Positions 346-32,000 of a stretch of 32,000 bases of DNA are shown one piece after another; the first letter of the stretch is position 1; each line of letters opens with the position of its first letter. This DNA comes from Acaryochloris marina MBIC11017 (GTDB taxonomy: Bacteria; Cyanobacteriota; Cyanobacteriia; Thermosynechococcales; Thermosynechococcaceae), in the NCBI RefSeq assembly GCF_000018105.1, contig NC_009925.1, positions 5,670,001 to 5,702,000 of the forward strand, in the 5' to 3' direction. The notes beneath the pieces are model-generated. The model searched no databases. It saw only the letters and a list, made by a program, of their open reading frames with translations, and was not told the DNA's origin. Made by a program: the position numbers and the translations under genes.

Positions 346-476
346 ATTAGTTTCAACGATTCTATAATTCCTCTACTGTGATTACCATCTGCGTCAATTT
401 AGGAAGATGATATAAAGCCTCAGACATTCAAATAGTGTAGCGAAAAAAGCACCTTTCCTGATTTGCCTCTAAAATG

Positions 477-2207
477 CTACAACATTCGTTCAAAACTGTC
501 ATAACGTTTCATTCTTAATAACAGCCGCAAGAAGACAATAGCAGCGACACTGGCAGCTAGAGCTGCAATCGCAGCCAGCCACACATACTTATTAACCAGC
601 AGAATCGTTGCAGAGAGTGTAAAAGCACCAATCAGCAAAGCATAGTTGGTTCCCATATGGGTTAAATTAAGCCGCCGCAAAATCCGGTCTGTTTCCACTG
701 AGCGCACTCGCATTCGGAGATCACCCTGCTCTAGCTTGTCCAGGGTATCTTCCATCCGTCGGGGTAGGCCCAAGGCAGTATTACTAACCTGGGCAGCCTG
801 CCGCCCCAACTCTCCCAACAGATCACCATTTTGATTATTTGAAAATCCACCGTTGGTCATAAGTTCTGCTGCAAAGGGTTCTGCAACCTCCATAAAGTTA
901 AACGTAGGATCTAAACCTCGCCCCACCCCTTCTAAAGTGGAAAAGGCCCGCATGACAAATGTAAACGTTGCGGGGAAACGAAAGGGTTGATCATAAGCAA
1001 TCTCAAATAGATCATCGCCAATTTGAGCAACAGACTGTTTATCAAACGGCTGCCCCATAAAATTATCCAACATATATTGGATCGAGCGTCGGATCGGACC
1101 CATATCATCTACAGGTAATAGTGCCCCTAAATCGATCAAAGAAGCAATCACTTTATTGGCATCTTTTTGAGCAAACCCGAAAAACGTCTTTAGCAGCTTC
1201 TCTCGGGTCAGCGTCGTAATCTGGCCCATCATGCCAAAATCATAGAAGATCAGCTTTCCATCCGAACTCACAGCTAAGTTGCCAGGATGTGGATCCGCAT
1301 GGAAAAAACCATCCGTCAATAACTGATAAAGATAGGCTTTAGCACTCAGTTGGGCAATTCGCTTCCGATCGATACCAGCTGCATCAATGGCATCATAATT
1401 ACTAATTTTGAGACCTGGAACATACTCTAGGGTCAGCACTCGGGGCGTTGCATATCGCCAAAAGACTCGGGGCACATACACCCATTCTTGTTCCCGGAAA
1501 TTGCGCCGAAACTGATCGGCATTGCGGCCTTCATTTAAATAGTCAATTTCTTCATAGAGGATTTTGCAGCATTCTTCGTAGATGCCCAGCCAGTCTCTCC
1601 CAGGCCCCCACTTGGGGTGGTTTTGAAAATAATGGGCAATGCCTTTTAAAATTCTCAAGTCAATATCAAACAGCTTTTTGAGACCCGGACGCTGAATTTT
1701 GACAACAACTTCTTCCCCAGACTGCAGTTGAGCACGGTGAACTTGACCTAAGCTCGCCGCAGCTAGAGGAACGGGATCAAAACTGCAAAATAACTCTGGA
1801 ATAGTGCGGCCAAAGTCCTTCTCAATAATTCGTTCTACAATCTCATAGCTAAAGGCAGGCACACGATCCTGGAGCTTGGACAGCTCTTCGACATACTCCG
1901 CTGGGAATAAATCCGCACGGGTTGAGAACAATTGTCCAACTTTAATAAAGGTGGGTCCTAGATCGAGTAAGGTCTCTCGGATCCAGACGGCTTGCTTGCG
2001 TCGTCGGGTCGCTCGCTTGTCTTCCGTCATCCCTCCGGCATAACTCCAAGACTTACTCAACCACCACCTAGAGCTAAGCAGCTGCAGCACAAAGGCCCAA
2101 ATATCCAGGAAACGACGTTGCCGAGAATAGCTTTCTCGATTCCAGCGATAGGCTTTGCGATTTTGTTTTGGGAAGGTCAACTCAGAGGATGAAACTGACA
2201 CAGGCAC
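477..2207 (-). CDS. ABC1/UbiB (AarF) family atypical protein kinase with C-terminal transmembrane helices
   Basis: 576-aa ORF. It contains LGPTFIKVGQLFSTRADLFP, AAASLGQVHRA, VVVKIQRPG and FHADPHPGNL motifs typical of ABC1 kinases, plus a hydrophobic C-terminus. The start is a GTG that overlaps the upstream stop codon by 1 nt. Confidence 0.9.
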   Translation of the reverse strand: MPVSVSSSELTFPKQNRKAYRWNRESYSRQRRFLDIWAFVLQLLSSRWWLSKSWSYAGGMTEDKRATRRRKQAVWIRETLLDLGPTFIKVGQLFSTRADLFPAEYVEELSKLQDRVPAFSYEIVERIIEKDFGRTIPELFCSFDPVPLAAASLGQVHRAQLQSGEEVVVKIQRPGLKKLFDIDLRILKGIAHYFQNHPKWGPGRDWLGIYEECCKILYEEIDYLNEGRNADQFRRNFREQEWVYVPRVFWRYATPRVLTLEYVPGLKISNYDAIDAAGIDRKRIAQLSAKAYLYQLLTDGFFHADPHPGNLAVSSDGKLIFYDFGMMGQITTLTREKLLKTFFGFAQKDANKVIASLIDLGALLPVDDMGPIRRSIQYMLDNFMGQPFDKQSVAQIGDDLFEIAYDQPFRFPATFTFVMRAFSTLEGVGRGLDPTFNFMEVAEPFAAELMTNGGFSNNQNGDLLGELGRQAAQVSNTALGLPRRMEDTLDKLEQGDLRMRVRSVETDRILRRLNLTHMGTNYALLIGAFTLSATILLVNKYVWLAAIAALAASVAAIVFLRLLLRMKRYDSFERML

Positions 2208-6570: not shown

Positions 6571-6741
6571 ATTTTCAGTTGAAACCAAAGTGGAAGTTTT
6601 CAGAGGACTCCACATTAAACATCGATTGGCCAAATCGTATTGTCTGAAAGGATTACTCTTAACTTAATAAAAAGGTGTGATCCTTAATACAAATGTGCTA
6701 GGGAATAGGATAAGTTTCTAGTTTTTCCAGAATTGTCATCC

Positions 6742-7866
6742 ATGAAATTTATCCATCCACTCGCTCCGATTATTGTCACTGCAATGATTGCTGCTCCCTT
6801 TCAGAGTGCCCAGGCATTGAGTTCAGCGGAAGTGAGTGAGATCGCAGAAGCCATCACCGTCCGGATCGATGGTCAAAATTCTGGTTCGGGAGTGATTATC
6901 AAGCGCCAGAATGACGTTTATACAGTGCTGACTGCGGCCCATGTGGTAGCTACAGCGGATGAATATGATGTGGTGACAGCTGACGACTTACGATATCCAT
7001 TGACCTATAGCAAGGTTAAAAAATTTCCTGGGATTGATTTGGCATTGGTTGAATTTACCAGTTCAAAATCCTATCAGGTGGCAAAACTGGGTGACTCGTC
7101 GAATGTACGAGCCGGAGAGTCCATTTATGTCTCTGGATTCCCCATGCCCACAGCTGCTATCACTGAGCCCATTTGGAATTTTTCTGAGGGGAAAGTGACG
7201 GCGAATGCCAAGCGCCCTTTGGCCGATGGCTATGGATTGGTTTATAGCAATAACACCTTGCCGGGGATGAGTGGTGGATCTGTTTTAGATCGCCAAGGCC
7301 AACTGATTGGGATTCATGGTCGGGCAGACGGGGAAAGGCAAGTTAAACGAACGGAAACGGTGTATGTGAAGACCGGCTTTAATTTGGGCATTCCCATCAA
7401 TACTTTTTTAAGTTCGGTGGGCACGGTTCATCCGGCTTTGGGATTCTCTGGAACAGTGGCAACAGGTGGCGCTGAATTGACCCCGGATGATCTTTATGTG
7501 CAGGGGACCGATAAATTCCAGCGGGGAAACTACCAGGGTGCGATCGCAGATCTAAACCAATCCATTGATCTCAATCCCCAGAACGCCTTTGCCTACAACA
7601 GTCGCGGCAATGCCTACTACGAATTGCAGCAATACGAAGATGCGATCGCTCAGTACGACCAAGCCATTGCTCTTAACCCTGACTATGCCGAAGCTTATTT
7701 CAATCGAGGGCTTGCCCATCAGCTCATGGGGAATAACGCTCAAGCCCAGCAAGATCATCTGAAATCAAAGCAGCTCTTAGGGGGGCAGGTCGACTCACTG
7801 CAAAATAAAGCCGATCGCATTCAGCAATTGTTAGATCAGAAACTCAAACCCTTTGAGCGGCGATAG
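6742..7866 (+). CDS. Secreted trypsin-like (S1) serine protease with C-terminal TPR repeats
   Basis: Signal peptide MKFIHPLAPIIVTAMIAAPFQSAQA. The catalytic triad contexts are LTAAHVV, IDLALVEF and GMSGGSV. Three TPR units are present (AFAYNSRGNAYYELQQYEDAIAQYDQAIALNPDYAEAYFNRG...). The ORF track starts at a TTG at 6733; I prefer the ATG at 6742. Confidence 0.85.
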   Translation: MKFIHPLAPIIVTAMIAAPFQSAQALSSAEVSEIAEAITVRIDGQNSGSGVIIKRQNDVYTVLTAAHVVATADEYDVVTADDLRYPLTYSKVKKFPGIDLALVEFTSSKSYQVAKLGDSSNVRAGESIYVSGFPMPTAAITEPIWNFSEGKVTANAKRPLADGYGLVYSNNTLPGMSGGSVLDRQGQLIGIHGRADGERQVKRTETVYVKTGFNLGIPINTFLSSVGTVHPALGFSGTVATGGAELTPDDLYVQGTDKFQRGNYQGAIADLNQSIDLNPQNAFAYNSRGNAYYELQQYEDAIAQYDQAIALNPDYAEAYFNRGLAHQLMGNNAQAQQDHLKSKQLLGGQVDSLQNKADRIQQLLDQKLKPFERR

Positions 7867-8334: not shown

Positions 8335-10050
8335 GTGAGCACTAATCAAAAATTTTCTCGCCAGGTGCGGAACGGCAAAGTCGTTTACGTGCCTGCAACT
8401 CCGCGTACTCATACACAATCTGCTCATTCTCAAACCTCTCGACCGCTACTTAAACTCCGGTCTAGTCTGAATTTGCTGCTGTTGGTGGGTATCGCTACCA
8501 CAGTAGTGGGCTTGGCTTGGTTAAGTTACCAAGTCATTACGGATCCAGATGTGGCGTTTTGGTTGAATCAGTATTTGCCAACCACAAAAGGGAAACAAAC
8601 CGCTGCCCATCAACCCCGTACCTTGCAGCAAATTTTGAAGCGTCTCCAGGATCAGAAACAGTCGCCCGGAAAGCCAATTGTGTTAGCGGCGAATGGCAAT
8701 ACCAATCTTTCCCGACCCGTCACTAAAGATATTTTGGTCCCTATCTATGGCAAGAAGTGTTCTCGGCCTCCTTGCCAGAACATCCAATCTTTGCAGGTAT
8801 ACCGTTCATTAAAACTGCCCTCTCTCCTGAGACTGTTCCAGGGCAAACGCTATTATCGTTTGTTGGATCGGATGACGGTGCGTGGTCCCACGGAAGAACA
8901 GCTAGTGAGCTTAGCCCGTAATCCACGTTTGGTGACAGGGTCCACCCGGCCTTTAAATTTATCTCGGGTCGAAGTTTATAATCCTGCCCCTAAGCCAGGG
9001 GCTTGGTTACGGTTAACAGGGCTGAGGACAGAAGGGAGTGCAACGGCTACCTATGGCCAAGTTTTATATTTCCATCCTGATGAAGCTCGGTTGGTCTTGA
9101 TGTTGAATTGGGCTAGCCCCTCGGGGGAATATCCTCAATGGCGTCAAGTGACGGGGGATCCGCAGCCAGAATTGGTCGTCAAACAAACAGTGGGTCTAGA
9201 GCCACAATATGCAGTCTATTGGCTGCGTCCTGCGCCAACAGGTGACTTGCAGGTAGAACATATCTCCCTAGCCAAGCCCGCCTTCGCCGATCCAGGCTAT
9301 ACCCAAAGCTTGTTGCTGGCTCGAAGTGGTTTATGGTCTCCAGCTCAAAAGCGGTTGTTGGCGGTCAAAAAAAGGCAGTTGCGTCGGTGGTCGCCTAAGG
9401 CTCAAGCCCAATTGGACTATATCAATCTCCATGCGGCTGTAGCCAAGTCTCAAGCCCAGCAAATTTCGGCGAGTCGAGTGCAAACGATTGTGGCTCGGCT
9501 GGTGAATGGAGAATGGAGTGCGGCCCTGAAGCTCTTTCAAGCCCCCCAAACGGATCCAGTAGAAGTGAGGGCCATGCTGGCTACCGATCCAGGGCGCTTA
9601 TTTGCACGAATAGAAGCTTCATTAAAGGTCAATCCCAAGAATCAAGATGCGATCGCATGGGGTACCCTTATCCGTCATGTACAGGATGATCCGAAGACAG
9701 CCCTGGTTTGGGCCCAGCAGCGGACGGGAAAAAATAAGACTTCACTTGAGACCATCAAGAAACTGTTGAAACGTCTGGATCAGCCGCGCTATACCCCGAA
9801 AGAAACCCCCACTAAGCCCAAGCCCCCCGTTTCCCAAGAAAAGCCTCCCGCCCAGTCTTCTCCAAAAGTCAAGCCTTCCCCCAAGGCTCCGCCTCCCCAG
9901 CCCCAGTCATCCGGGGCTCAACTTTCTTCGCCGGGGTCTTCGCCAGCGCCCCCTAAACCTGCCCCCGTCCCCGAGCAGACTGCACAGCCTGAACCTTCAC
10001 CGCCACCAGAGGTTGCTCCTGTTCCGGTTGAGGAGACGCCAAGGGAATAG
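8335..10050 (+). CDS. Membrane-anchored hypothetical protein, 571 aa, with a proline-rich C-terminal tail
   Basis: GTG start with no in-frame ATG before the single TM helix (LNLLLLVGIATTVVGLAWLSY). The last roughly 90 aa are P/K/S/Q-rich (KPKPPVSQEKPPAQSSPKVKPSPKAPPPQPQ...PAPPKPAPVPEQ). I recognise no catalytic motif. Confidence 0.7.
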   Translation: MSTNQKFSRQVRNGKVVYVPATPRTHTQSAHSQTSRPLLKLRSSLNLLLLVGIATTVVGLAWLSYQVITDPDVAFWLNQYLPTTKGKQTAAHQPRTLQQILKRLQDQKQSPGKPIVLAANGNTNLSRPVTKDILVPIYGKKCSRPPCQNIQSLQVYRSLKLPSLLRLFQGKRYYRLLDRMTVRGPTEEQLVSLARNPRLVTGSTRPLNLSRVEVYNPAPKPGAWLRLTGLRTEGSATATYGQVLYFHPDEARLVLMLNWASPSGEYPQWRQVTGDPQPELVVKQTVGLEPQYAVYWLRPAPTGDLQVEHISLAKPAFADPGYTQSLLLARSGLWSPAQKRLLAVKKRQLRRWSPKAQAQLDYINLHAAVAKSQAQQISASRVQTIVARLVNGEWSAALKLFQAPQTDPVEVRAMLATDPGRLFARIEASLKVNPKNQDAIAWGTLIRHVQDDPKTALVWAQQRTGKNKTSLETIKKLLKRLDQPRYTPKETPTKPKPPVSQEKPPAQSSPKVKPSPKAPPPQPQSSGAQLSSPGSSPAPPKPAPVPEQTAQPEPSPPPEVAPVPVEETPRE

Positions 10051-12852: not shown

Positions 12853-14637
12853 ATGCAGGCTAGTGCGCAAATCTTGATGATAGAGGATGATGATCAAGAT
12901 GCGGAGCTTGTACGCAGATACTTGACAGTCAAGCAGGCTTTCCCGATTCAGATTGAGCACAGCAAGACCTTGTCTGATGGCATTAATCTTCTCAATCACA
13001 GAGAGGGAATTGACTTAATCCTGTTGGATTTATGTTTATCAGATGCTCAAGGATTAGAGACGTTTTATCAAGTCCACCAAGCTTTTCCTGCCAAGCCTTT
13101 AATTATTTTAAGCGGCAATACCGATCAATCTTTGGTGGAAGAGGCTCTCCAAAAAGGAGCATTGGATTTTCTAGTGAAAGGGCAGTTTGATAGCACTTCC
13201 CTTTGCCGTTCGATTCAATATGCCCTAAAACAGCAGCATCAATCTGTTGAAATTGGATATCGAGATCTCACCCTTGATGCCCTCACCCGGCAGCTCAAAA
13301 TTGCTCAACAGGAGCTAGAACGATTAGCGGAGGTGGACAAGGTTACCCGCGTCTTTAACCGCTGTCGGTTTGATGAAGTGTACCTGTCGGAATGGAATCG
13401 CTTGACGCGAGAAGGCTCCCATTTATCCTTAGTCTTGTGTGAAATTGATAATCTACAAGCCTACCAAGAGAAATATGGGGCTGAAGTCTGCGATTACTGT
13501 TTGCAGCGGGTTGCTGAAGAGATCGTAAAAGTTGCCAGACGCCCTGCTGATTGCGTGGCTCGTTATAGTGGGCGAACCTTTATGATTCTGTTGCCCAATA
13601 CCGATTTGGCCGGTGCCACTTATCTTGCAGAAGCGATTCGCACGGGGGTCAGGTCGGTGCCGTTCCCCCCTGAAAGTTTAGGGGTAACGAATTCCCCGAT
13701 CACCCTGAGTTTAGGGGTGGCTTGTCAAATTCCACGGGCAAAAGTTGCGCCGTCTTTGCTGATTGAAGCGGTGCATCAAGCCCTCCATTTTGCGCGAGAA
13801 CAAGGGAAAGATCGAGTCCAGATTCATCATACGGGGTGTGCAGACCCAGACCTCCACTCAAACCAGACCCTGCATTGGGTGAGTCGACTATTAAAGGCTT
13901 TAGATAAGGACCAATTTAAGCTTTATGCTCAGCCCATTTACCCCCTGAGCCGGGGGCAAAAGTCCTGCAGTTATGAGATTTTATTGCGGTTACAGGATCA
14001 GCCTGGTATTGTTTGTTCCCCCAGTTTGTTTTTACCCATGGTGGAACAGTATGACTTTATGACTCGAATTGATCGGTGGGTGATTAACAACTTGCTGGCT
14101 AATTTGGAAACTATGCCTGCTTTGGATGAACTGGATGCCCGGTTCTTTATTCACTTGTCAAGCGCGACCTGCCGCAATGGAGAACTGTTTGAGTTTTTGG
14201 ATAAACAATTTTCTCACTCCAATCGTCATGTGCAGCGATTCTGCTTTGAGGTGACTGAAAATGTGGCTCTGAGTCATTTGACGTCTACAGTGGAATTGAG
14301 CCGTTTTCTCAAATCTATGGGATGCCAGATTGCGCTAGATAATTTTGGTAGTGATATGTCTGCCTTTATGAATTTGAAACATCTGCCCGTCGATTTTGTG
14401 AAAATCGATGGGTTGTTGGTCCGGGATATTGCCCAAGATCAAATTTCTCGGGGCATTGTTGAGTCGATTCATAATGTGGCCAAGGTGATGGGCATGCAGA
14501 CGATTGCTGAGCATGTGGAGTCGGATGTCGTGCTGGATGCGATCGCAAATGTGGGTATTGATTATGCTCAAGGGCATTACTATGATCGCGCCAAGCCTTT
14601 ACTCGACGTAGTGTCAGCGACTCGCCGATCTCGCTAG
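12853..14637 (+). CDS. Response regulator with REC, degenerate GGDEF and variant EAL domains
   Basis: 594 aa. The REC domain is canonical (EDDD, LILLDL, ILSG, LVKG). The GGDEF A-site reads SGRTF (13567-13581) with RxxD retained as RPAD (13540-13551). The EAL domain has EIL (13975-13983), EVTE and KID, but HLS replaces N.S and DNFG replaces DDFG. Confidence 0.9.
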   Translation: MQASAQILMIEDDDQDAELVRRYLTVKQAFPIQIEHSKTLSDGINLLNHREGIDLILLDLCLSDAQGLETFYQVHQAFPAKPLIILSGNTDQSLVEEALQKGALDFLVKGQFDSTSLCRSIQYALKQQHQSVEIGYRDLTLDALTRQLKIAQQELERLAEVDKVTRVFNRCRFDEVYLSEWNRLTREGSHLSLVLCEIDNLQAYQEKYGAEVCDYCLQRVAEEIVKVARRPADCVARYSGRTFMILLPNTDLAGATYLAEAIRTGVRSVPFPPESLGVTNSPITLSLGVACQIPRAKVAPSLLIEAVHQALHFAREQGKDRVQIHHTGCADPDLHSNQTLHWVSRLLKALDKDQFKLYAQPIYPLSRGQKSCSYEILLRLQDQPGIVCSPSLFLPMVEQYDFMTRIDRWVINNLLANLETMPALDELDARFFIHLSSATCRNGELFEFLDKQFSHSNRHVQRFCFEVTENVALSHLTSTVELSRFLKSMGCQIALDNFGSDMSAFMNLKHLPVDFVKIDGLLVRDIAQDQISRGIVESIHNVAKVMGMQTIAEHVESDVVLDAIANVGIDYAQGHYYDRAKPLLDVVSATRRSR

Positions 14638-26629: not shown

Positions 26630-27085
26630 ATGGGCAACCGTCGGCTCAAAAAAATAGGTCGCAAAGTTGCGATTTCTTTCTTGATTGGGAGTCTTGCTAC
26701 ATTCTTAGCACCATCAGTCAGAGCTGAGAAACCTGAACATTTGCAAAGGATTAAACAAACTCGAACCTGCTTTAACTGTGATCTCAAGAAGGCAGACTTA
26801 GCTAACATCTCTTTAAAGGGTGCTTTTCTGAGAGAGACCAATCTGCAAGAGGCTAATCTTGAAGGGGCTGATTTGCGGTTTGCTGTTCTGAAAAAGGTGA
26901 ACTTCAAAAAAGCTAATCTTAAAAATGCCGATTTCACTGGGGCAATTTTGCATGATGTTAATTTGGATGATGCAGATCTAAAAGGGGCCACCTTACCCCC
27001 TAGATATCGGAGAAAATCCAATTCAAATTCTAAGATTCGTGCCCAAGAATTAATTATAGATGTCTTAAAACTGCAGCGCCGTTGA
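26630..27085 (+). CDS. Secreted pentapeptide-repeat protein
   Basis: 151 aa. It has a signal peptide (...LAPSVRA|EK) followed by about 17 consecutive A(D/N)LxX pentapeptides (CDLKKADLANISLKGAFLRETNLQEANLEGADLRFAVLKKVNFKKANLKNADFTGAILHDVNLDDADLKGATL). Confidence 0.85.
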   Translation: MGNRRLKKIGRKVAISFLIGSLATFLAPSVRAEKPEHLQRIKQTRTCFNCDLKKADLANISLKGAFLRETNLQEANLEGADLRFAVLKKVNFKKANLKNADFTGAILHDVNLDDADLKGATLPPRYRRKSNSNSKIRAQELIIDVLKLQRR

Positions 27086-27100
27086 TATTGCAAGCAAGAC

Positions 27101-28378
27101 TTAAGTGAATACGCAACTGCCGCCATTGTTCCTTGCTTGCTGTAGGTTGCGATCACCGGCTTCTATGAATGCCTCAATGCCTATATCTGATGTGGGCTGG
27201 ATGGAGGCGAGGCCAATACTAAAAGAAAAGGTCTCCTCTCCTTCCTTGACTTGCTTTGATAACTCTTGAGCAATTGCCTCAGCTTGGGCAGAAGTCTGTT
27301 GGGGTAAAACGATGGCAAAGGTGAAGGTGCCATATCGACAAACTAGATCATTCGGACCATGTACAGTTTGCTTGATAGTTTGAGCAATGCGATACAAATA
27401 CTGGTCTCCTTTTTGGGAATTTCCACCTGAACCATAGAAATTGAAATGATCAAGTTGGCAGAGCATTAACGTCAAAGAGTGTTGGTCTTGAATGGCTTCA
27501 TGCCAGGATGTCAAAAGGTAGGCGTCAAAGCGGCGGCGGTTGGCGACCTGGGTGACATCATCCAGGGCAGCTAGACGCTGCAGTTCTAAATTTGCTTGGT
27601 GGAGTTGTGCGTTTTGAGTCTTAAGCGCTTGCTGGAGTTGTTGAATTTTTAGTTGATTTTGTACTCGGGCTAAGACCTCTACGACCTTAAAGGGTTTGGT
27701 GATGTAATCTACTCCTCCCACAGAAAAGGCTTTGACCTTATCCCAAGATTCATCCAGAGCGCTAACGAAGACTACGGGAATGTCTTGGGTGGATGGATCA
27801 GCTTTAAGCTTTTGACAAACAGTGTAACCATCCATTTCTGGCATTTGAATATCTAAGAGAATCAACTGAGGTTGATCGAGAGACACGGCCTGGAGAGCAA
27901 CATTGCCGTTGAGAGCTTGGAGAACTTCATAGCCCTGTTCTTCTAATACGTCTGTGAGCAACCGTAGATTTTGGGGTTGGTCATCCACCAGTAAGATTTT
28001 GACTTTTCCAGTGGGGACAGTGGGTTCAGGGGGTGGAGGTGCCTCGATAGAGGCGTTAGAGGATGGGTTATGCGCACTGCTGGTTTGAGTCGTGTTGCGC
28101 ATCTCCTGAGTGAGGATGATTCGCACATTAGATTTTGAAACTTTTTTATCTAGGGCTTGGGACAGCAAATGCCAGAGTTTAGGGGCAACATCCTGTTTGA
28201 CATATTTAGGGGAATAGCCACATTCATCTGCGAGCTGATCGTAGGTTTTGCGTTCTCCTTGCAAGGCCGTACTGAGGATACGCCGTTGAAGTTCACTGCA
28301 GTAGGTGTCCGTTTTTTGCAGGATTAAGTTTTCTGCAAATTCTAAGATGGGTTCACTGGAATGATCGATGTCGCTCAT
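27101..28378 (-). CDS. Response regulator with an N-terminal sigma70-region4/LuxR-like HTH module, a REC domain and a degenerate GGDEF domain
   Basis: 425 aa. The N-terminus L.ELQRRIL....QGERKTYDQLADECGYSPKYVKQDVAPKLWHLLSQALDKKVSKSNVR resembles an HTH module. REC motifs are VDDQ, LILLDIQMPEMDG, FVSA and ITKPF. The GGDEF fold has an A-site reading GTFTF (27317-27331), with GPND in place of RxxD. It lies 11 nt downstream of the kinase gene. Confidence 0.88.
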   Translation of the reverse strand: MSDIDHSSEPILEFAENLILQKTDTYCSELQRRILSTALQGERKTYDQLADECGYSPKYVKQDVAPKLWHLLSQALDKKVSKSNVRIILTQEMRNTTQTSSAHNPSSNASIEAPPPPEPTVPTGKVKILLVDDQPQNLRLLTDVLEEQGYEVLQALNGNVALQAVSLDQPQLILLDIQMPEMDGYTVCQKLKADPSTQDIPVVFVSALDESWDKVKAFSVGGVDYITKPFKVVEVLARVQNQLKIQQLQQALKTQNAQLHQANLELQRLAALDDVTQVANRRRFDAYLLTSWHEAIQDQHSLTLMLCQLDHFNFYGSGGNSQKGDQYLYRIAQTIKQTVHGPNDLVCRYGTFTFAIVLPQQTSAQAEAIAQELSKQVKEGEETFSFSIGLASIQPTSDIGIEAFIEAGDRNLQQARNNGGSCVFT

Positions 28379-28389
28379 AGAAACGGACC

Positions 28390-30807
28390 TTAAGGTTTGT
28401 CTTGCGTTAATTTGGTCGTAACTTCAGTAATATGAGCATATTCATAGTTCTCGGCTAGCTCAATCAAATATTGGGAGGCTGATTCATATTCCGGTGGCAT
28501 TTCGGATAAAAGCTGGATCACTTGTTTGCCCTTGAGTCGGAGGGCAGCATGGTGCAGTTCATCTAACCAGTTGGCGGACATCGATCCTAAGGCTTGATCA
28601 ATGATCTCTGAACTAATGACGGCTGAGGGGAGTGCTTCTGGTTCAACCCTATCATTTGGTGGTGGGGGGGGAGCCACCCCGTCTGCAATATTTTGTAAAC
28701 TGGCGTCACTGTCGGACTCTGCGATGGTGACTTGGGCCGTAAAGGTGAAGGTTGTCCCTTGCCCGACTTGGCTGGATACCTTGATATCCCCACCCATTAG
28801 CTGAGCGAATTGTTGACTAATGGGTAAACCAAGTCCTGTGCCAGCTTTCGATTTCTCTCCACTTTCAGTTTGTTCAAAAGGAACAAACAATTTGTGCAGT
28901 TCAGAAGCGGCAATTCCTTCGCCTGTGTCTTCAATTTCAAACCGTAATGTCAAACCTGCTGGTGTGGGTATGCTCCCTATGCGGAGAAAGATGTGTCCGG
29001 CCGGGGTGAATTTAAGGGCATTGCTCAACAAGTTGATGAGGACTTGTCGGAGTTTCTGGGCATCTCCGAATAAATAGGGTGGGAGATCGGGGGTGGCTTT
29101 AACCCGAAAGGCTAATCCTTTTTGTTCGATTCGAAGTCGAAAGATGCCTTCTACGGTCTCCAGTAAGGTACTGAGTTGGAAGGGACCTTCTCGCAGTTCT
29201 TGTTTTCCTGACTCTAGTTTGGCTAGAGATAAAATGTCGTTGATCAGTCCTAATAAGTGTTCGCCACTTTGGTTAATTAAGCGATTGCGTTTGTGATTGG
29301 CTTCAGAGAGAGTGGTGTCTTGGGCCATCATTTGGCTAAACCCCAGAATGGCATTGAGGGGCGTGCGTAATTCATGGCTCATTTTGGCGAGAAATTTTCC
29401 CTTGGCCCGACTGGCCATTTCGGCCGCTTCTTTGGCTTGGCTGAGCTCTAGATTTGATTGCTGAAGTTCGGAGGTTCGTTGGGCAACCTGAATTTCCAGA
29501 TCGGTTTTGGCCTGTTCCAGGATGCGAAGGGTCTGTTGTTGGGCTTTGACCTTGGTTTGGATGAAGCGATCGTACTGATAGAAGGCATCTAGACTGAGGC
29601 TGATTAGCAGAAAGCTGGCTAGGGTTGGGACCACGGGTAGCCACCATCCCCAAAGTAGTGCTAGATAGCTGATGCCGGATACCAGTAATGCGGAGAGTGC
29701 GATCGCAAGTATCGTATACCGAGGTGAGTGAATATAGGCGGCAACAATGATGCCCACTAGACCGCCGCCCAAAATACAGAGGTACTCTATCCAATCTGGC
29801 CAAGTACTGATCAGCGGTCGTTGATCTAAAGTTGCACTCAGAATTTGACTAATGGCATGAGCATGTATCTCAATGCCATAGACCCAGTTTGCTTTCGGAG
29901 AGATGATGGAGGGAATGGCAGCGGGAGAATAGTCCTGGAAGCTAGGGGTGGTGATGCCAATCAGGACGATACGATTTCTGACTGAATCCGGTGAAACATT
30001 GCCTGATAGTAATTTATGAAATGAGACAGTCTCAAATGCTTTGGGATGGTTGCGAAAATTGAGCAGCATTTGGACATCTGCATTCCCAGTATTGGTGCGA
30101 ATATAGCCCCCAAAATTAGGTCGAATTCGAGGAATCTCCGCAGACTTAAATCTCATGGCTACGGGATCATTGATGCCATTATCTAGATGGATATTTTGGG
30201 CAATTAGAAATTTCTCGGCTAGGAGTAATGCTAGGGAGTATCGGAAGACTTGTTTTTTCGTTTGAGTTCCCAGCATGACCCGACGTTGGCTACCGTCCAG
30301 ATCGACAGGGGCATCAGCAAATCCAACTCGGTCTAGGGGTAAGCCGGGGGGAGGATTCACTCGTTCCGATTGGTTCTCATCCAGTTCTTTCTTATTCTCA
30401 TCCAGAATTTTATCGATACCAAATAGATTTTCCATCTCCTGAAAGGCGGTGGCCAAGTCTGCTGAACCCGGTTCTACGGGGATATCTCGGAATAAATCCA
30501 GACCAATTGCTCTAGGCTCATGCTCTTGAAGAATGTTGAGCGACTGGGCGAGGTATTGATCGGGAATGGGATAGCGGCCAATCGAGCGAATACTATCCTC
30601 ATCAATCGTGACCAACAGAATGCGTTTGTCTTGGGTTTCTGTCGGTTGATATTTCAGAAAGAGATCTAAGACTTGCAATTCCCAGGATTGGAAGGTTCCT
30701 GCCCATCGTCCACCGAGGATTAGGCCCAGTATAAGTAAGCTGGGGAGCGCCACAAGCTTCAGTGGGGCTAATGGTTGACGAAGTTTATGCCAAATCTCAG
30801 ACTTCAA
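28390..30807 (-). CDS. CHASE2-domain sensor histidine kinase
   Basis: 805 aa. An N-terminal TM helix is followed by a CHASE2-type extracytoplasmic domain (LLVTIDEDSIRSIGRYPIPDQYLAQSL...IGLDLFRD) and 3 TM helices. A coiled coil, HisKA (MSHELRTPLNAILGF) and HATPase (DTGEGI, GTGLGL) follow. The protein ends in a Pro5 linker and a 109-aa helical tail. The only possible start is a TTG at 30807, preceded by AAGGGG with a 7-nt spacer. Confidence 0.9.
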   Translation of the reverse strand: MKSEIWHKLRQPLAPLKLVALPSLLILGLILGGRWAGTFQSWELQVLDLFLKYQPTETQDKRILLVTIDEDSIRSIGRYPIPDQYLAQSLNILQEHEPRAIGLDLFRDIPVEPGSADLATAFQEMENLFGIDKILDENKKELDENQSERVNPPPGLPLDRVGFADAPVDLDGSQRRVMLGTQTKKQVFRYSLALLLAEKFLIAQNIHLDNGINDPVAMRFKSAEIPRIRPNFGGYIRTNTGNADVQMLLNFRNHPKAFETVSFHKLLSGNVSPDSVRNRIVLIGITTPSFQDYSPAAIPSIISPKANWVYGIEIHAHAISQILSATLDQRPLISTWPDWIEYLCILGGGLVGIIVAAYIHSPRYTILAIALSALLVSGISYLALLWGWWLPVVPTLASFLLISLSLDAFYQYDRFIQTKVKAQQQTLRILEQAKTDLEIQVAQRTSELQQSNLELSQAKEAAEMASRAKGKFLAKMSHELRTPLNAILGFSQMMAQDTTLSEANHKRNRLINQSGEHLLGLINDILSLAKLESGKQELREGPFQLSTLLETVEGIFRLRIEQKGLAFRVKATPDLPPYLFGDAQKLRQVLINLLSNALKFTPAGHIFLRIGSIPTPAGLTLRFEIEDTGEGIAASELHKLFVPFEQTESGEKSKAGTGLGLPISQQFAQLMGGDIKVSSQVGQGTTFTFTAQVTIAESDSDASLQNIADGVAPPPPPNDRVEPEALPSAVISSEIIDQALGSMSANWLDELHHAALRLKGKQVIQLLSEMPPEYESASQYLIELAENYEYAHITEVTTKLTQDKP

Positions 30808-30825
30808 TCCTTATCCCCTTAATTC

Positions 30826-30839
30826 GTGATATGTGATAT
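30826..30839. repeat. Tandem heptamer GTGATAT x2 just upstream of the kinase start
   Basis: GTGATAT occurs at 30826-30832 and is repeated exactly at 30833-39. This is 19-33 nt upstream of the TTG start on the kinase strand. Confidence 0.6.
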
Positions 30840-30895
30840 GAACCCATTCCCCCTGCAATCCTCGAATTCTGGTCTAGATTTCGTTTTGAAGATCA

Positions 30896-30947
30896 ACCTG
30901 AACGCTCTGATTATCAATACCTGAACTTTGGCTGAAGTTTCCTGATG
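30896..30947. promoter_or_regulatory. Cluster of phased CTGA-containing direct repeats in the divergent control region
   Basis: ACCTGAAC occurs at 30896-30903 and again at 30919-30926. CTGA cores start at 30898, 30907, 30921, 30932 and 30942, giving five in about 50 bp where about 0.2 are expected. The last three are spaced 10-11 bp apart. Confidence 0.35.
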
Positions 30948-31018
30948 ATAACGGGATTTTTTCTGCCAACAAGCTCAATTAAGGTAATTTCAATAACCGA
31001 ATTACGGGGAGATCTGAT

Positions 31019-31201
31019 ATGCCTTCTGACTTTAGGTATGGAGAACCGATACACATTACACTGCCATCATTGTCATCAATGATGGCAGTGATAAAGGAGC
31101 AATTTCAGGAATGGGTCCGTCGAGAAATTATTGATTTTGACCCCTATGACGACGAAGGGGGATTAAGCAATTTTCCAGAAGAATTGAGAATAGATAAATA
31201 A
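31019..31201 (+). CDS. Hypothetical micro-ORF, 60 aa; coding status uncertain
   Basis: The ATG is preceded by GGGGAG with an 8-nt spacer. The stop is followed 13 nt later by the next ORF. However, the ORF contains a perfect 14-bp palindrome, which is unusual for coding sequence. I recognise no family. Confidence 0.3.
   Translation: MPSDFRYGEPIHITLPSLSSMMAVIKEQFQEWVRREIIDFDPYDDEGGLSNFPEELRIDK
31059..31090. repeat. Perfect 14-bp inverted repeat with a 4-nt spacer
   Basis: CACTGCCATCATTG (31059-31072), TCAT, CAATGATGGCAGTG (31077-31090). The arms are exact reverse complements, checked base by base. Confidence 0.9.
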
Positions 31202-31214
31202 AGGAGGTATTACT

Positions 31215-31409
31215 ATGTTTTTAGAGAAAACCCGCCACTACTTCCGTTCCGCTACCCAACGATTACGAGTGTCATTAGAACCTTGGCAGGAGGCCGCTTT
31301 GGGATGGATCGATCAGAACTTACAGATCATTGCTGATCGAGATGATTGTTCTACTCAGGGGCAAACAGAACAGATTGCGATCGCATTTTGTACCGTCAGT
31401 GCTAAGTGA
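31215..31409 (+). CDS. Hypothetical micro-ORF, 64 aa
   Basis: A perfect Shine-Dalgarno sequence AAGGAGGT lies 6 nt upstream of the ATG. A HIP1 site at 31377-31384 falls in the usual Ala-Ile-Ala reading frame. The stop is 11 nt before the DUF928 start. I recognise no family. Confidence 0.45.
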   Translation: MFLEKTRHYFRSATQRLRVSLEPWQEAALGWIDQNLQIIADRDDCSTQGQTEQIAIAFCTVSAK

Positions 31410-31420
31410 GGTATGCACCT

Positions 31421-32000
31421 ATGGTTATGGCTCATCTCAATCCAATTCATCTGCTGAAAAGGCGCCGGGGAGAAAGACAGAACGGCTTCAGCTATCGTTT
31501 CGGGCTAGGTCTATTGCTCGTGTCCCTGTCGATATTGCCTTCCCCCGCTTGGGCAAGACGATATCAGCCGCCCAAGGGTGATCCGCCGAAAGGTAAGTTT
31601 GGGTCCAATGGTTCTCGGGGTTGTAGTTCTGCCCCATCCAAGTCATCGGCTTTGAGTCGTCCAACGGTGCCAGAGCAAAATCATGCCCAGACGGCAGCGG
31701 CTCAGCCCAGCAGCATTCCCGTTACCCTGTTAGCTCCCAGTACTCATGTGGGGAGAACCAGTGTGGTGGCACCTACGCTGGCTTGGTTTGTAACGGCAAC
31801 GGATCCCTATCGCGTCAGAATTTCTCTATTTATTCTGGATGCGGATCAAAGTTCTGAACTGATCCATGAGTTGGAATATATCGAAACGTCTTCTGGACTG
31901 GTTCAATACACTGTGCCAGCGGACCAGACCACCCTTGAGGATGGCCAACGGTTTTTTGTGGAGTTGAGTATTGCCTGTAAACCGGATGACGATCGATTTA
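31421..32000 (+). CDS. DUF928 domain protein, secreted; N-terminal 193 aa only, continuing beyond the window
   Basis: Hand translation gives MVMAHLNPIHLLKRRRGERQNGFSYRFGLGLLLVSLSILPSPAWARRYQPPKGDPPKGKFGSNGSRGCSS...TLLAPSTHVGRTSVVAPTLAWFV...LEDGQRFFVELSIACKPDD. It has a signal peptide and the Y.PP..G.P....G..GSRGC, LLAP....G.T and P.L.W.V blocks, then a C-terminal L..G..Y/F...L...C block. All match my recollection of the DUF928 family. GAGG lies 9 nt upstream of the ATG. It is absent from the ORF track because the frame is open-ended. Confidence 0.78.
   Translation, partial: MVMAHLNPIHLLKRRRGERQNGFSYRFGLGLLLVSLSILPSPAWARRYQPPKGDPPKGKFGSNGSRGCSSAPSKSSALSRPTVPEQNHAQTAAAQPSSIPVTLLAPSTHVGRTSVVAPTLAWFVTATDPYRVRISLFILDADQSSELIHELEYIETSSGLVQYTVPADQTTLEDGQRFFVELSIACKPDDDRF

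Follow-up and report, generated by a model that had tools for sequence, protein, structure and literature searches.

Positions 27,101 to 32,000 of a 32,000-nucleotide stretch of the Acaryochloris marina MBIC11017 chromosome (NC_009925.1, positions 5,670,001 to 5,702,000 of the forward strand; the whole stretch is hereafter called the window) encode a sensor histidine kinase with a CHASE2 domain, its neighbouring response regulator and, on the opposite strand, two small open reading frames (microORFs) followed by an exported protein of the DUF928 family. DUF928 is here found to be a near-constant neighbour of cyanobacterial CHASE2 genes, with which it co-diverges whatever the output domain of the sensor. 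The A. marina locus is probably one version of a conserved cyanobacterial envelope module formed by a CHASE2 sensor, an exported DUF928 protein and a TPR-CHAT protease, here fused to the TpsA exoprotein of a two-partner secretion (TPS) system, with DUF928 as the partner of CHASE2. An initial annotation, made from the sequence alone, had proposed DUF928, or a peptide from its N-terminus, for that role; the proposal fits, by association, with adjacency across different outputs, with co-divergence and with a disordered, near-invariant N-terminal motif.

CHASE2 is among the commonest bacterial extracytoplasmic sensor domains, occurring on kinases, cyclases, GGDEF proteins, phosphatases, TIR proteins and caspases, and the signals known for it so far amount to one indirect protein cue in Sinorhizobium. 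The CHASE2-DUF928 pairing provides a testable candidate partner, so that the question of the CHASE2 ligand becomes open to experiment, and its tie to secreted caspase-like proteases may be relevant to how cells of filamentous and symbiotic cyanobacteria recognise one another or die.

DUF928 and CHASE2 genes as neighbours

The starts of the kinase and DUF928 genes are 613 nucleotides (nt) apart on opposite strands, and three loci from Acaryochloris metagenome-assembled genomes (MAGs; L007, L008 and L010) keep the order regulator, kinase, microORF1, microORF2, DUF928 and TPS-CHAT at protein identities of 49-80%. A profile search of contigs with an alignment of close DUF928 orthologues returned only four Acaryochloris MAG loci, and because a genome search with close orthologues was too narrow, plasmids and metagenomes were used for neighbourhood statistics. 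The first sample consisted of annotated cyanobacterial plasmids, searched by tblastn with DUF928 and then with the CHASE2 domain. The second consisted of metagenome contigs, collected by a profile search built on 55 diverse DUF928 proteins and scanned in their flanks with purpose-built hidden Markov models (HMMs); it gave 80 loci falling into 60 non-redundant DUF928 clusters, 21 of them with at least 3 kb on both flanks.

Eight cyanobacterial plasmids were found by tblastn with DUF928, and a CHASE2 gene directly adjoins DUF928 in six of the seven that are annotated. The CHASE2 domains of those six plasmids are assigned by Pfam with E-values of 1e-61 to 1e-67, each being encoded by the single CHASE2 gene of a plasmid of 82-395 kb. 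Eight more CHASE2 matches were obtained on plasmids, six of which adjoin annotated DUF928 genes too divergent for the first tblastn search; in total, 12 of the 14 cyanobacterial plasmid CHASE2 genes inspected adjoin DUF928. Among the 21 well-flanked metagenome loci, CHASE2 lies within 1.5 kb of DUF928 in 13 and CHAT in equally many, at least one of the two in 18 and both in eight, with TPS within 6.5 kb in 14. Up to 1.5 kb from DUF928, CHASE2 occurs at 2.29 per 10 kb, versus 0.10 per 10 kb at 1.5-10 kb, an enrichment of ~22-fold. The recurrent neighbourhood put forward in the initial annotation is thus strongly enriched in two independent samples, usually in the company of CHAT and TPS/FHA genes.

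These data bear on an alternative reading, namely that the divergent arrangement is fortuitous and that kinase and regulator are an ordinary two-component system with no functional link to DUF928. The two units do lie on opposite strands, with 211 nt and two small genes that are absent in other clades between them, as such a reading would have it. It is nonetheless highly improbable in view of the four-gene synteny held across the Acaryochloris loci at ~50-80% protein identity, of the enrichment and plasmid counts just given, and of the closest plasmid CHASE2 relatives of the window kinase (35-42% identity), which include all five DUF928-adjoining plasmid kinases.

The CHASE2 proteins paired with DUF928 differ in output: some are short HATPase kinases that accompany LuxR-type regulators, one in Nostoc punctiforme pNPUN01 (L013) is fused to CHAT, one in Kovacikia pB (L025) is a TIR-CHASE2 protein, and CHASE2-GGDEF and CHASE2-SpoIIE proteins occur in the context of protein P0164. 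Genes for WD40, trypco2, NB-ARC and RsbW/STAS proteins are among the neighbours at these three places. The fusion or pairing of CHASE2 with CHAT, TIR, GGDEF and SpoIIE, together with such neighbours, suggests that the CHASE2-DUF928 pair feeds cell-death or conflict-type effectors besides ordinary signalling. A DUF1822 gene accompanies the pair in several Nostocales loci (L026, L028 and L031), to which Nostoc PCC 7120, with its CHASE2-DUF928 pair on plasmid pCC7120alpha, adds a sigma-70-family gene.

The DUF928 protein and its N-terminal motif

The window holds the first 193 of the 301 residues of DUF928 (31421..32000, plus strand), and the full protein (P0001) was recovered from public contigs with the same DNA. 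Pfam assigns DUF928 (PF06051) to the partial sequence with an E-value of 4.5e-12 and 46.5 bits and to the full one with 2.4e-23 and 83.3 bits, over a cut-off of 26. The N-terminus resembles a signal peptide which, judged by eye from the sequence, ends between AWA and RRY, in agreement with the earlier description of this ORF as a DUF928 protein bearing a signal peptide.

Across 55 diverse members of the family, with a mean identity of ~28%, near-invariance clusters twice, in a Y-x-P...P...R-G-x-C segment that follows the signal peptide and at a second Cys. The nearly invariant columns are Y48, P50, P56, R66, C68 and C186, and the A. marina motif Y-x-PP...G-S-R-G-C spans residues 48-68. Within the loci examined, the motif is confined to DUF928 proteins. 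In seven DUF928 representatives the Tyr...Arg unit is tandemly duplicated, the units opening with Tyr or Phe and ending with Arg, mostly as G-x-R. The AlphaFold2 (AF2) model displays residues 1-96 as disordered, residues 97-205 as an Ig-like sandwich, which holds the second Cys, and residues 208-279 as a helical bundle.

Run against PDB sequences, the DUF928 profile retrieved no relative of solved structure, and Foldseek with the model returned generic Ig-like domains, the best match over both domains being MtxA (4z29). MtxA is a secreted periplasmic protein of magnetotactic bacteria, and a conserved gene for a CHASE2 adenylate cyclase comes after its own (PMC4439547). It shares with the DUF928 model an Ig-like plus helical domain and the position beside a CHASE2 receptor gene, but the likeness is modest, with target-normalised TM scores of 0.51-0.54 and no detectable sequence similarity, and the MtxA locus lacks CHAT or TPS partners.

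The motif might itself carry the signal. In that case an exported, Arg-specific CHAT protease would cut DUF928 after the conserved Arg, and the freed ~20-residue Tyr/Pro-rich peptide, or the new N-terminus, would be the CHASE2 ligand in autocrine signalling or kin recognition. Consistent with this are the near-invariance of a disordered segment in a family otherwise ~28% identical, its tandem duplication in the seven representatives, its specificity to DUF928 proteins and the behaviour of the sole characterised cyanobacterial CHAT protease, HetF of Anabaena, a TPR-CHAT protease that cuts its small partner PatU3 after Arg (PMC9457339). The CHAT domain of HetF is, however, cytoplasmic and governs cell division and heterocysts with no involvement of CHASE2 or DUF928. 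CHAT specificity also varies between proteases, the type III-E Craspase cutting after Leu or Met; the motif is found as well where DUF928 has no CHAT neighbour (e.g. L027), and the Cys directly after the Arg may simply anchor the segment through a disulfide bond with C186. Release of a peptide ligand thus appears unlikely. The same doubt attaches to its generalization, in which cyanobacterial CHASE2 domains would be receptors for an encoded ligand and DUF928 a pro-ligand whose ~20-residue unit is freed or unmasked by a TPS-exported, Arg-specific CHAT protease. Were it true, one signal would feed kinase, c-di-GMP, PP2C, TIR and caspase-like outputs and might provide protease-gated self or kin recognition, or programmed-cell-death signalling, in multicellular cyanobacteria.

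The exoprotein beyond the window and the probable partner of DUF928

In a public contig with the same DNA as the window (L001), an ORF of more than 1859 residues starts 52 nt after DUF928, in line with the expectation that further components lie past position 32000. It encodes a TPS domain (E-value 4e-49), beta-helix repeats and TPR, and the contig ends as its CHAT domain begins. Its complete orthologue in the Acaryochloris MAG locus L010 has 1818 residues and a CHAT domain (E-value 8.7e-59) with an intact HLATHA...LSAC dyad. TPR-CHAT proteins of split loci bear N-terminal hydrophobic leaders and the fused form bears a TPS export domain; considered with the signal peptide of DUF928 and the topology of CHASE2, these features make it plausible that all three core parts are extracytoplasmic. 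A TpsB partner was found neither after the giant ORF in L010, where the next gene is an opposite-strand amidohydrolase, nor in a check of the ten largest ORFs located upstream in the window, the rest of the genome not having been searched; of the 21 well-flanked metagenome loci, 4 have ShlB no more than 8 kb away. PADLOC made no defence-system call for the kinase, DUF928, the giant protein or a fused microORF protein.

The chief rival reading takes the exoprotein as the true partner. DUF928 would then serve it as a periplasmic inhibitor or immunity protein, a chaperone or a substrate, and CHASE2 would regulate or monitor secretion by sensing, for example, envelope stress, a small molecule or secretion jamming. 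The co-operonic position of DUF928, 52 nt upstream of the TPS-TPR-CHAT gene and divergent from the kinase, favours this reading, as do the equal frequencies of CHAT and CHASE2 within 1.5 kb of DUF928 (13/21 each) and the DUF928-CHAT loci that lack CHASE2 (pREC3, L009, L039, L041, L054, L095 and L103). The converse arrangement, CHASE2-DUF928 with no CHAT nearby, is nevertheless seen in Nostoc NIES-3756, the TIR-CHASE2 locus of Kovacikia pB, the P0164 locus and L056, and the DUF928 reading frame overlaps or nearly touches that of CHASE2 in many pairs. Distance matrices argue in the same direction: those of DUF928 and the adjoining CHASE2 domain correlate with r = 0.79 (45 pairs), and the 21 loci that hold all three genes give r = 0.86 for DUF928-CHASE2 against 0.64 for DUF928-CHAT and 0.55 for CHASE2-CHAT, values to be read with the common ancestry of co-inherited genes in mind, which inflates such mirror-tree correlations and for which CHAT is the internal control from the same loci. 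A role of DUF928 for the CHAT/TPS exoprotein is considered the main rival, albeit one of rather low probability.

DUF928 as the CHASE2 partner, the reading preferred here, has its own difficulties besides the inflation of the correlations and the modest likeness to MtxA, and the following points weigh against it. Plasmids and metagenome contigs fall short of a complete genome census, and DUF928 is lacking from the retrieved flanks of two CHASE2 genes on Pseudanabaena plasmids. Close CHASE2-DUF928 pairs of the metagenomes are same-strand in 31 of 31 cases, while the pair of the window is divergent and its DUF928 gene co-operonic with TPS-CHAT. Finally, DUF928-CHAT occurs with no CHASE2 nearby in pREC3, in L009 and in 5 of the 21 well-flanked metagenome loci; the first two hold a paralogous pair, L009 belonging to one of the Acaryochloris MAGs and pREC3 being an A. 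marina plasmid. In pREC3 (L011, 18537-24358), DUF928-CHAT is followed by two genes for toxin-activating lysine-acyltransferases and one for a large calcium-binding (RTX-like) protein.

The CHASE2 kinase and its regulator

The kinase (28390..30807, minus strand) has 805 residues and a TTG start, and the gene of the 425-residue regulator (27101..28378, minus strand) lies 11 nt downstream of its stop, according to the ORF listing and translation. Coordinates, gap and domains of both genes, as first annotated, were recovered by ORF analysis and Pfam. The CHASE2 domain (PF05226) of the kinase is matched with an E-value of 6.8e-61 and 206 bits versus a cut-off of 26.3, so that Pfam assigns CHASE2, like DUF928, well over its threshold; HisKA (8.7e-19) and HATPase_c (1e-27) follow, and the H-box MSHELRTPLN is read in the translation. 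The protein is ordered as a transmembrane (TM) helix, a periplasmic CHASE2 domain of ~300 residues, three TM helices, HisKA, HATPase_c and a C-terminal tail of ~100 residues. This agrees with the AF2 model of residues 1-413 (pLDDT 90.9), where an alpha/beta CHASE2 domain is flanked by one TM helix before (14-36) and three after (338-358, 362-385 and 393-412). Foldseek found no PDB analogue of the CHASE2 model (best E-value 0.42). The tail (residues ~700-805, window 28390-28700) has zero Pfam or NCBIfam matches; it holds LDELHHAALRLKGKQ, with a loose likeness to the H-x-x-K-G box of histidine phosphotransfer (HPt) domains. Orthologues in L007, L008 and L010 are 73-78% identical to the kinase.

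The regulator combines an N-terminal helix-turn-helix (HTH) of the HTH_VMAP-M9 type, a REC domain (E-value 1e-27) and a GGDEF domain (6e-27), the REC residues DD, D, S/T and K being all present. HTH_VMAP-M9 (PF26355) comes from the precomputed annotation of the identical gene on public contig L001, while the local Pfam copy gave only a weak HTH_24 match in that region. The GGDEF signature reads RYGTFTF, with GTFTF in place of GG(D/E)EF, and the RxxD I-site is missing, since GPNDLVCRYG has no Arg five residues upstream. Orthologues with ~79% identity (L007 and L010) keep the degeneracy as RYGTFTF or RYGTISF, which points to a domain that is conserved yet no cyclase; judged by its motifs, the GGDEF domain is catalytically dead. 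The HTH-REC-degenerate-GGDEF architecture first described is therefore retained, and of the non-canonical output once ascribed to this protein, the part that concerns c-di-GMP synthesis stands; the part that excluded canonical DNA binding does not, as the HTH may allow it. The regulator corresponds to WP_041660515.1 of A. marina and appears in an older record as a 333-residue 'diguanylate cyclase'. Its best NCBIfam match, far below cut-off, is PleD, with which it shares REC followed by a GGDEF fold but from which it differs in the GTFTF active site, the lack of an I-site and the additional N-terminal HTH. In the Acaryochloris MAG locus L007, a second HTH-REC paralogue (458-1297, minus strand), 52% identical and devoid of GGDEF, lies immediately downstream of the regulator gene.

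Proposed working of the module

We infer the following course for the physical contacts, the signal, its processing and the target of the regulator. In the periplasm, DUF928 would be the partner dedicated to CHASE2, serving either as a docking co-receptor or as the carrier of a ligand; in the latter case the ligand would be the disordered, Pro-rich N-terminal motif that ends in the near-invariant Arg-Gly-x-Cys, in tethered or released form. A probable influence on DUF928 comes from the CHAT protease or from the state of its secretion, cleavage after the conserved Arg being one possibility. The CHASE2 kinase would then phosphorylate the neighbouring HTH-REC regulator, whose dead GGDEF may work as a regulatory or interaction domain. 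The probable target of the regulator is the divergent microORF1-microORF2-DUF928-TPS/CHAT operon, which it would reach by way of the ACCTGAAC repeats and the invariant leader described below. This logic is reasonable because it has precedents in the CHASE2 cyclases of S. meliloti, a Burkholderia LysM/FecR operon and HetF.

Relation to known systems

The nearest relatives of the locus are clusters of Nostocales plasmids (e.g. Nostoc flagelliforme pNFSY04, Calothrix PCC 7716 p2 and p4, and Aulosira laxa plasmid2), which are annotated but uncharacterised and carry genes for a response regulator, a CHASE2 kinase, DUF928, TPR-CHAT and FHA/TPS proteins. They share four families with the A. marina locus, namely CHASE2 kinase, DUF928, TPR-CHAT and TPS/FHA exoprotein, and their CHASE2 domains are those closest plasmid relatives, at 35-42% identity, of the window kinase. 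Their CHASE2 and DUF928 genes are, however, same-strand and often adjoining, with the response regulator upstream, whereas the units of the window are divergent. Their kinase is of a short type (~630 residues) and works with a LuxR-type response regulator, unlike the 805-residue HisKA-type kinase with its HTH-REC-dead GGDEF regulator, and TPR-CHAT and FHA are separate genes there, while in A. marina CHAT is fused to TpsA and two small genes are inserted.

Extracytoplasmic accessory proteins of CHASE2 sensors are also found outside cyanobacteria. The BiofilmReg operon of Burkholderia encodes a response regulator, a periplasmic LysM/FecR protein and a CHASE2 kinase (PMC5192318), and the S. meliloti CHASE2 cyclases CyaD1, CyaD2 and CyaK rely on the outer-membrane protein NsrA to respond to a protein signal (PMC13001267), which renders slightly dated the statement of the initial annotation that CHASE2 has no identified ligand. 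Both resemble the module in coupling a CHASE2 sensor with such a protein, but the accessories (FecR/LysM and a beta-barrel, respectively) are unrelated to DUF928 and neither system has a CHAT or TPS part. Kaur et al. name CHASE2 only in a list of several sensor domains that caspase proteins carry (PMC8195603).

The working logic of the proposed module is shared as well with LuxP-LuxQ and TorT-TorS, in which the signal is presented or relayed by a soluble protein of the periplasm, encoded next to a membrane kinase, and the interaction is proven. LuxP and TorT are periplasmic-binding-protein folds with small-molecule ligands, and the sensor domains are unrelated to CHASE2, whereas DUF928 joins an Ig-like sandwich to a helical bundle and carries a disordered peptide. 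TorS and LuxQ are the best NCBIfam models for the core of the window kinase, both far under their membership cut-offs.

The principle of a sensor with a co-encoded periplasmic partner is thus already known. The literature searched describes neither the families involved, nor the three-way link to a caspase-like protease that is secreted, nor how generally the pairing extends over CHASE2 outputs; DUF928 is treated there for one N. punctiforme cluster only, its CHASE2 adjacency being taken as species-specific, nothing joins CHAT, FHA/two-partner secretion and CHASE2, and AM1_5637 to AM1_5642 are not mentioned.

The divergent control region

Between the kinase and microORF1 lies an intergenic region of 211 nt (30808..31018), whose two halves differ markedly in an alignment of the four loci. 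Conservation is poor in the half that adjoins the kinase start, while the ~140 nt directly upstream of microORF1 form a non-coding block with 86% mean column identity, better conserved than the adjoining coding sequence, the flanking small proteins being 48-70% identical. The block is ordered as two ACCTGAAC copies, an invariant 28-mer, a GTAATT/AATTAC hairpin and a Shine-Dalgarno (SD) sequence.

The phased repeats reported for this region proved to be two direct copies of ACCTGAAC with 23-nt spacing (30896..30926, plus strand; starts at 30896 and 30919) that are conserved in the orthologous loci, the first copy being invariant in all four and the second identical in three and reading ATCTGAAT in L010. 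They are candidate binding sites for the regulator. Four copies of ACCTGAAC occur in the whole window versus ~1 expected; the two extra ones lie within genes and are probably due to chance.

The 28-mer TTTCCTGATGATAACGGGATTTTTTCTG (30938..30965, plus strand) is identical in the window, L007, L008 and L010. It forms a weak 5-bp hairpin with a T6 run behind it, was marked as terminator-like in a terminator scan and resembles a weak terminator or attenuator; promoter and terminator scans gave a number of sites not above that of shuffled sequence. An Rfam search of the intergenic and microORF region returned nothing beyond a chance miRNA-like match on a hairpin of that region, and RNAalifold detected zero covariation in the conserved leader because the paired columns are invariant. 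The conserved block may act as an RNA or a DNA element, and may be an operator, an attenuator or a leader.

A perfect palindrome of 14 bp had also been ascribed to the control region. The perfect repeat does exist (31059..31090, plus strand; arms 31059-31072 and 31077-31090 with a 4-nt loop), but it lies inside microORF1, overlapping an internal ATGATG, and is not conserved, the hairpin energy being -24 kcal/mol here versus -12 to -13 kcal/mol in the three orthologous loci. As a general regulatory element the hairpin was therefore discarded.

The microORFs

The plus-strand ORFs begin 211 nt from the kinase start and are separated by gaps of 13 and 11 nt, with the SD-like elements GGGGAG, AAGGAGG and GTGAGG placed 7-9 nt upstream of the starts of microORF1, microORF2 and DUF928, respectively, just as initially annotated. 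MicroORF1 (31019..31201, plus strand; WP_148215827.1) encodes a cytoplasmic protein of 60 residues with a WVRREIIDFDPYD motif and is kept in L007, L008 and L010. MicroORF2 (31215..31409, plus strand) encodes 64 residues and corresponds to AM1_5640 of the 6.5-Mb A. marina chromosome. Both are fused in one 145-residue protein (P0158) in L010, and microORF2 has a dN/dS of 0.2-0.47 across the four loci, observations from which it is argued that both microORFs are translated and act together.

Neither microORF matches Pfam or NCBIfam, and the same is true of the microORF1-like proteins of other cyanobacteria, e.g. Cyanothece PCC 7425, which have 82-84 residues and in which the 13 residues of WVRREIIDFDPYD are also invariant. 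These proteins look like an unrecognised small-protein family; their genes (L018-L023) sit between ispE-like and sigma-factor or AhpC/2OG-oxygenase genes. HMMs of the microORFs gave no match across ~95 other DUF928 loci. Since the microORFs are missing from those loci and the microORF1-like proteins occur in unrelated neighbourhoods, the microORFs were rejected as core parts of the module and are regarded as an addition specific to the Acaryochloris clade.

Other genes of the window

Elsewhere in the window, an ORF of 571 residues without a Pfam match occupies 8335-10050, a trypsin-like protease-TPR fusion is encoded at 6733-7866 and a REC-GGDEF-EAL protein at 12853-14637. Convergent with the regulator gene and 15 nt past its stop, the stretch 26630-27085 encodes a pentapeptide-repeat protein of 151 residues with a signal-peptide-like N-terminus, a gene neighbourhood that is kept in L010.

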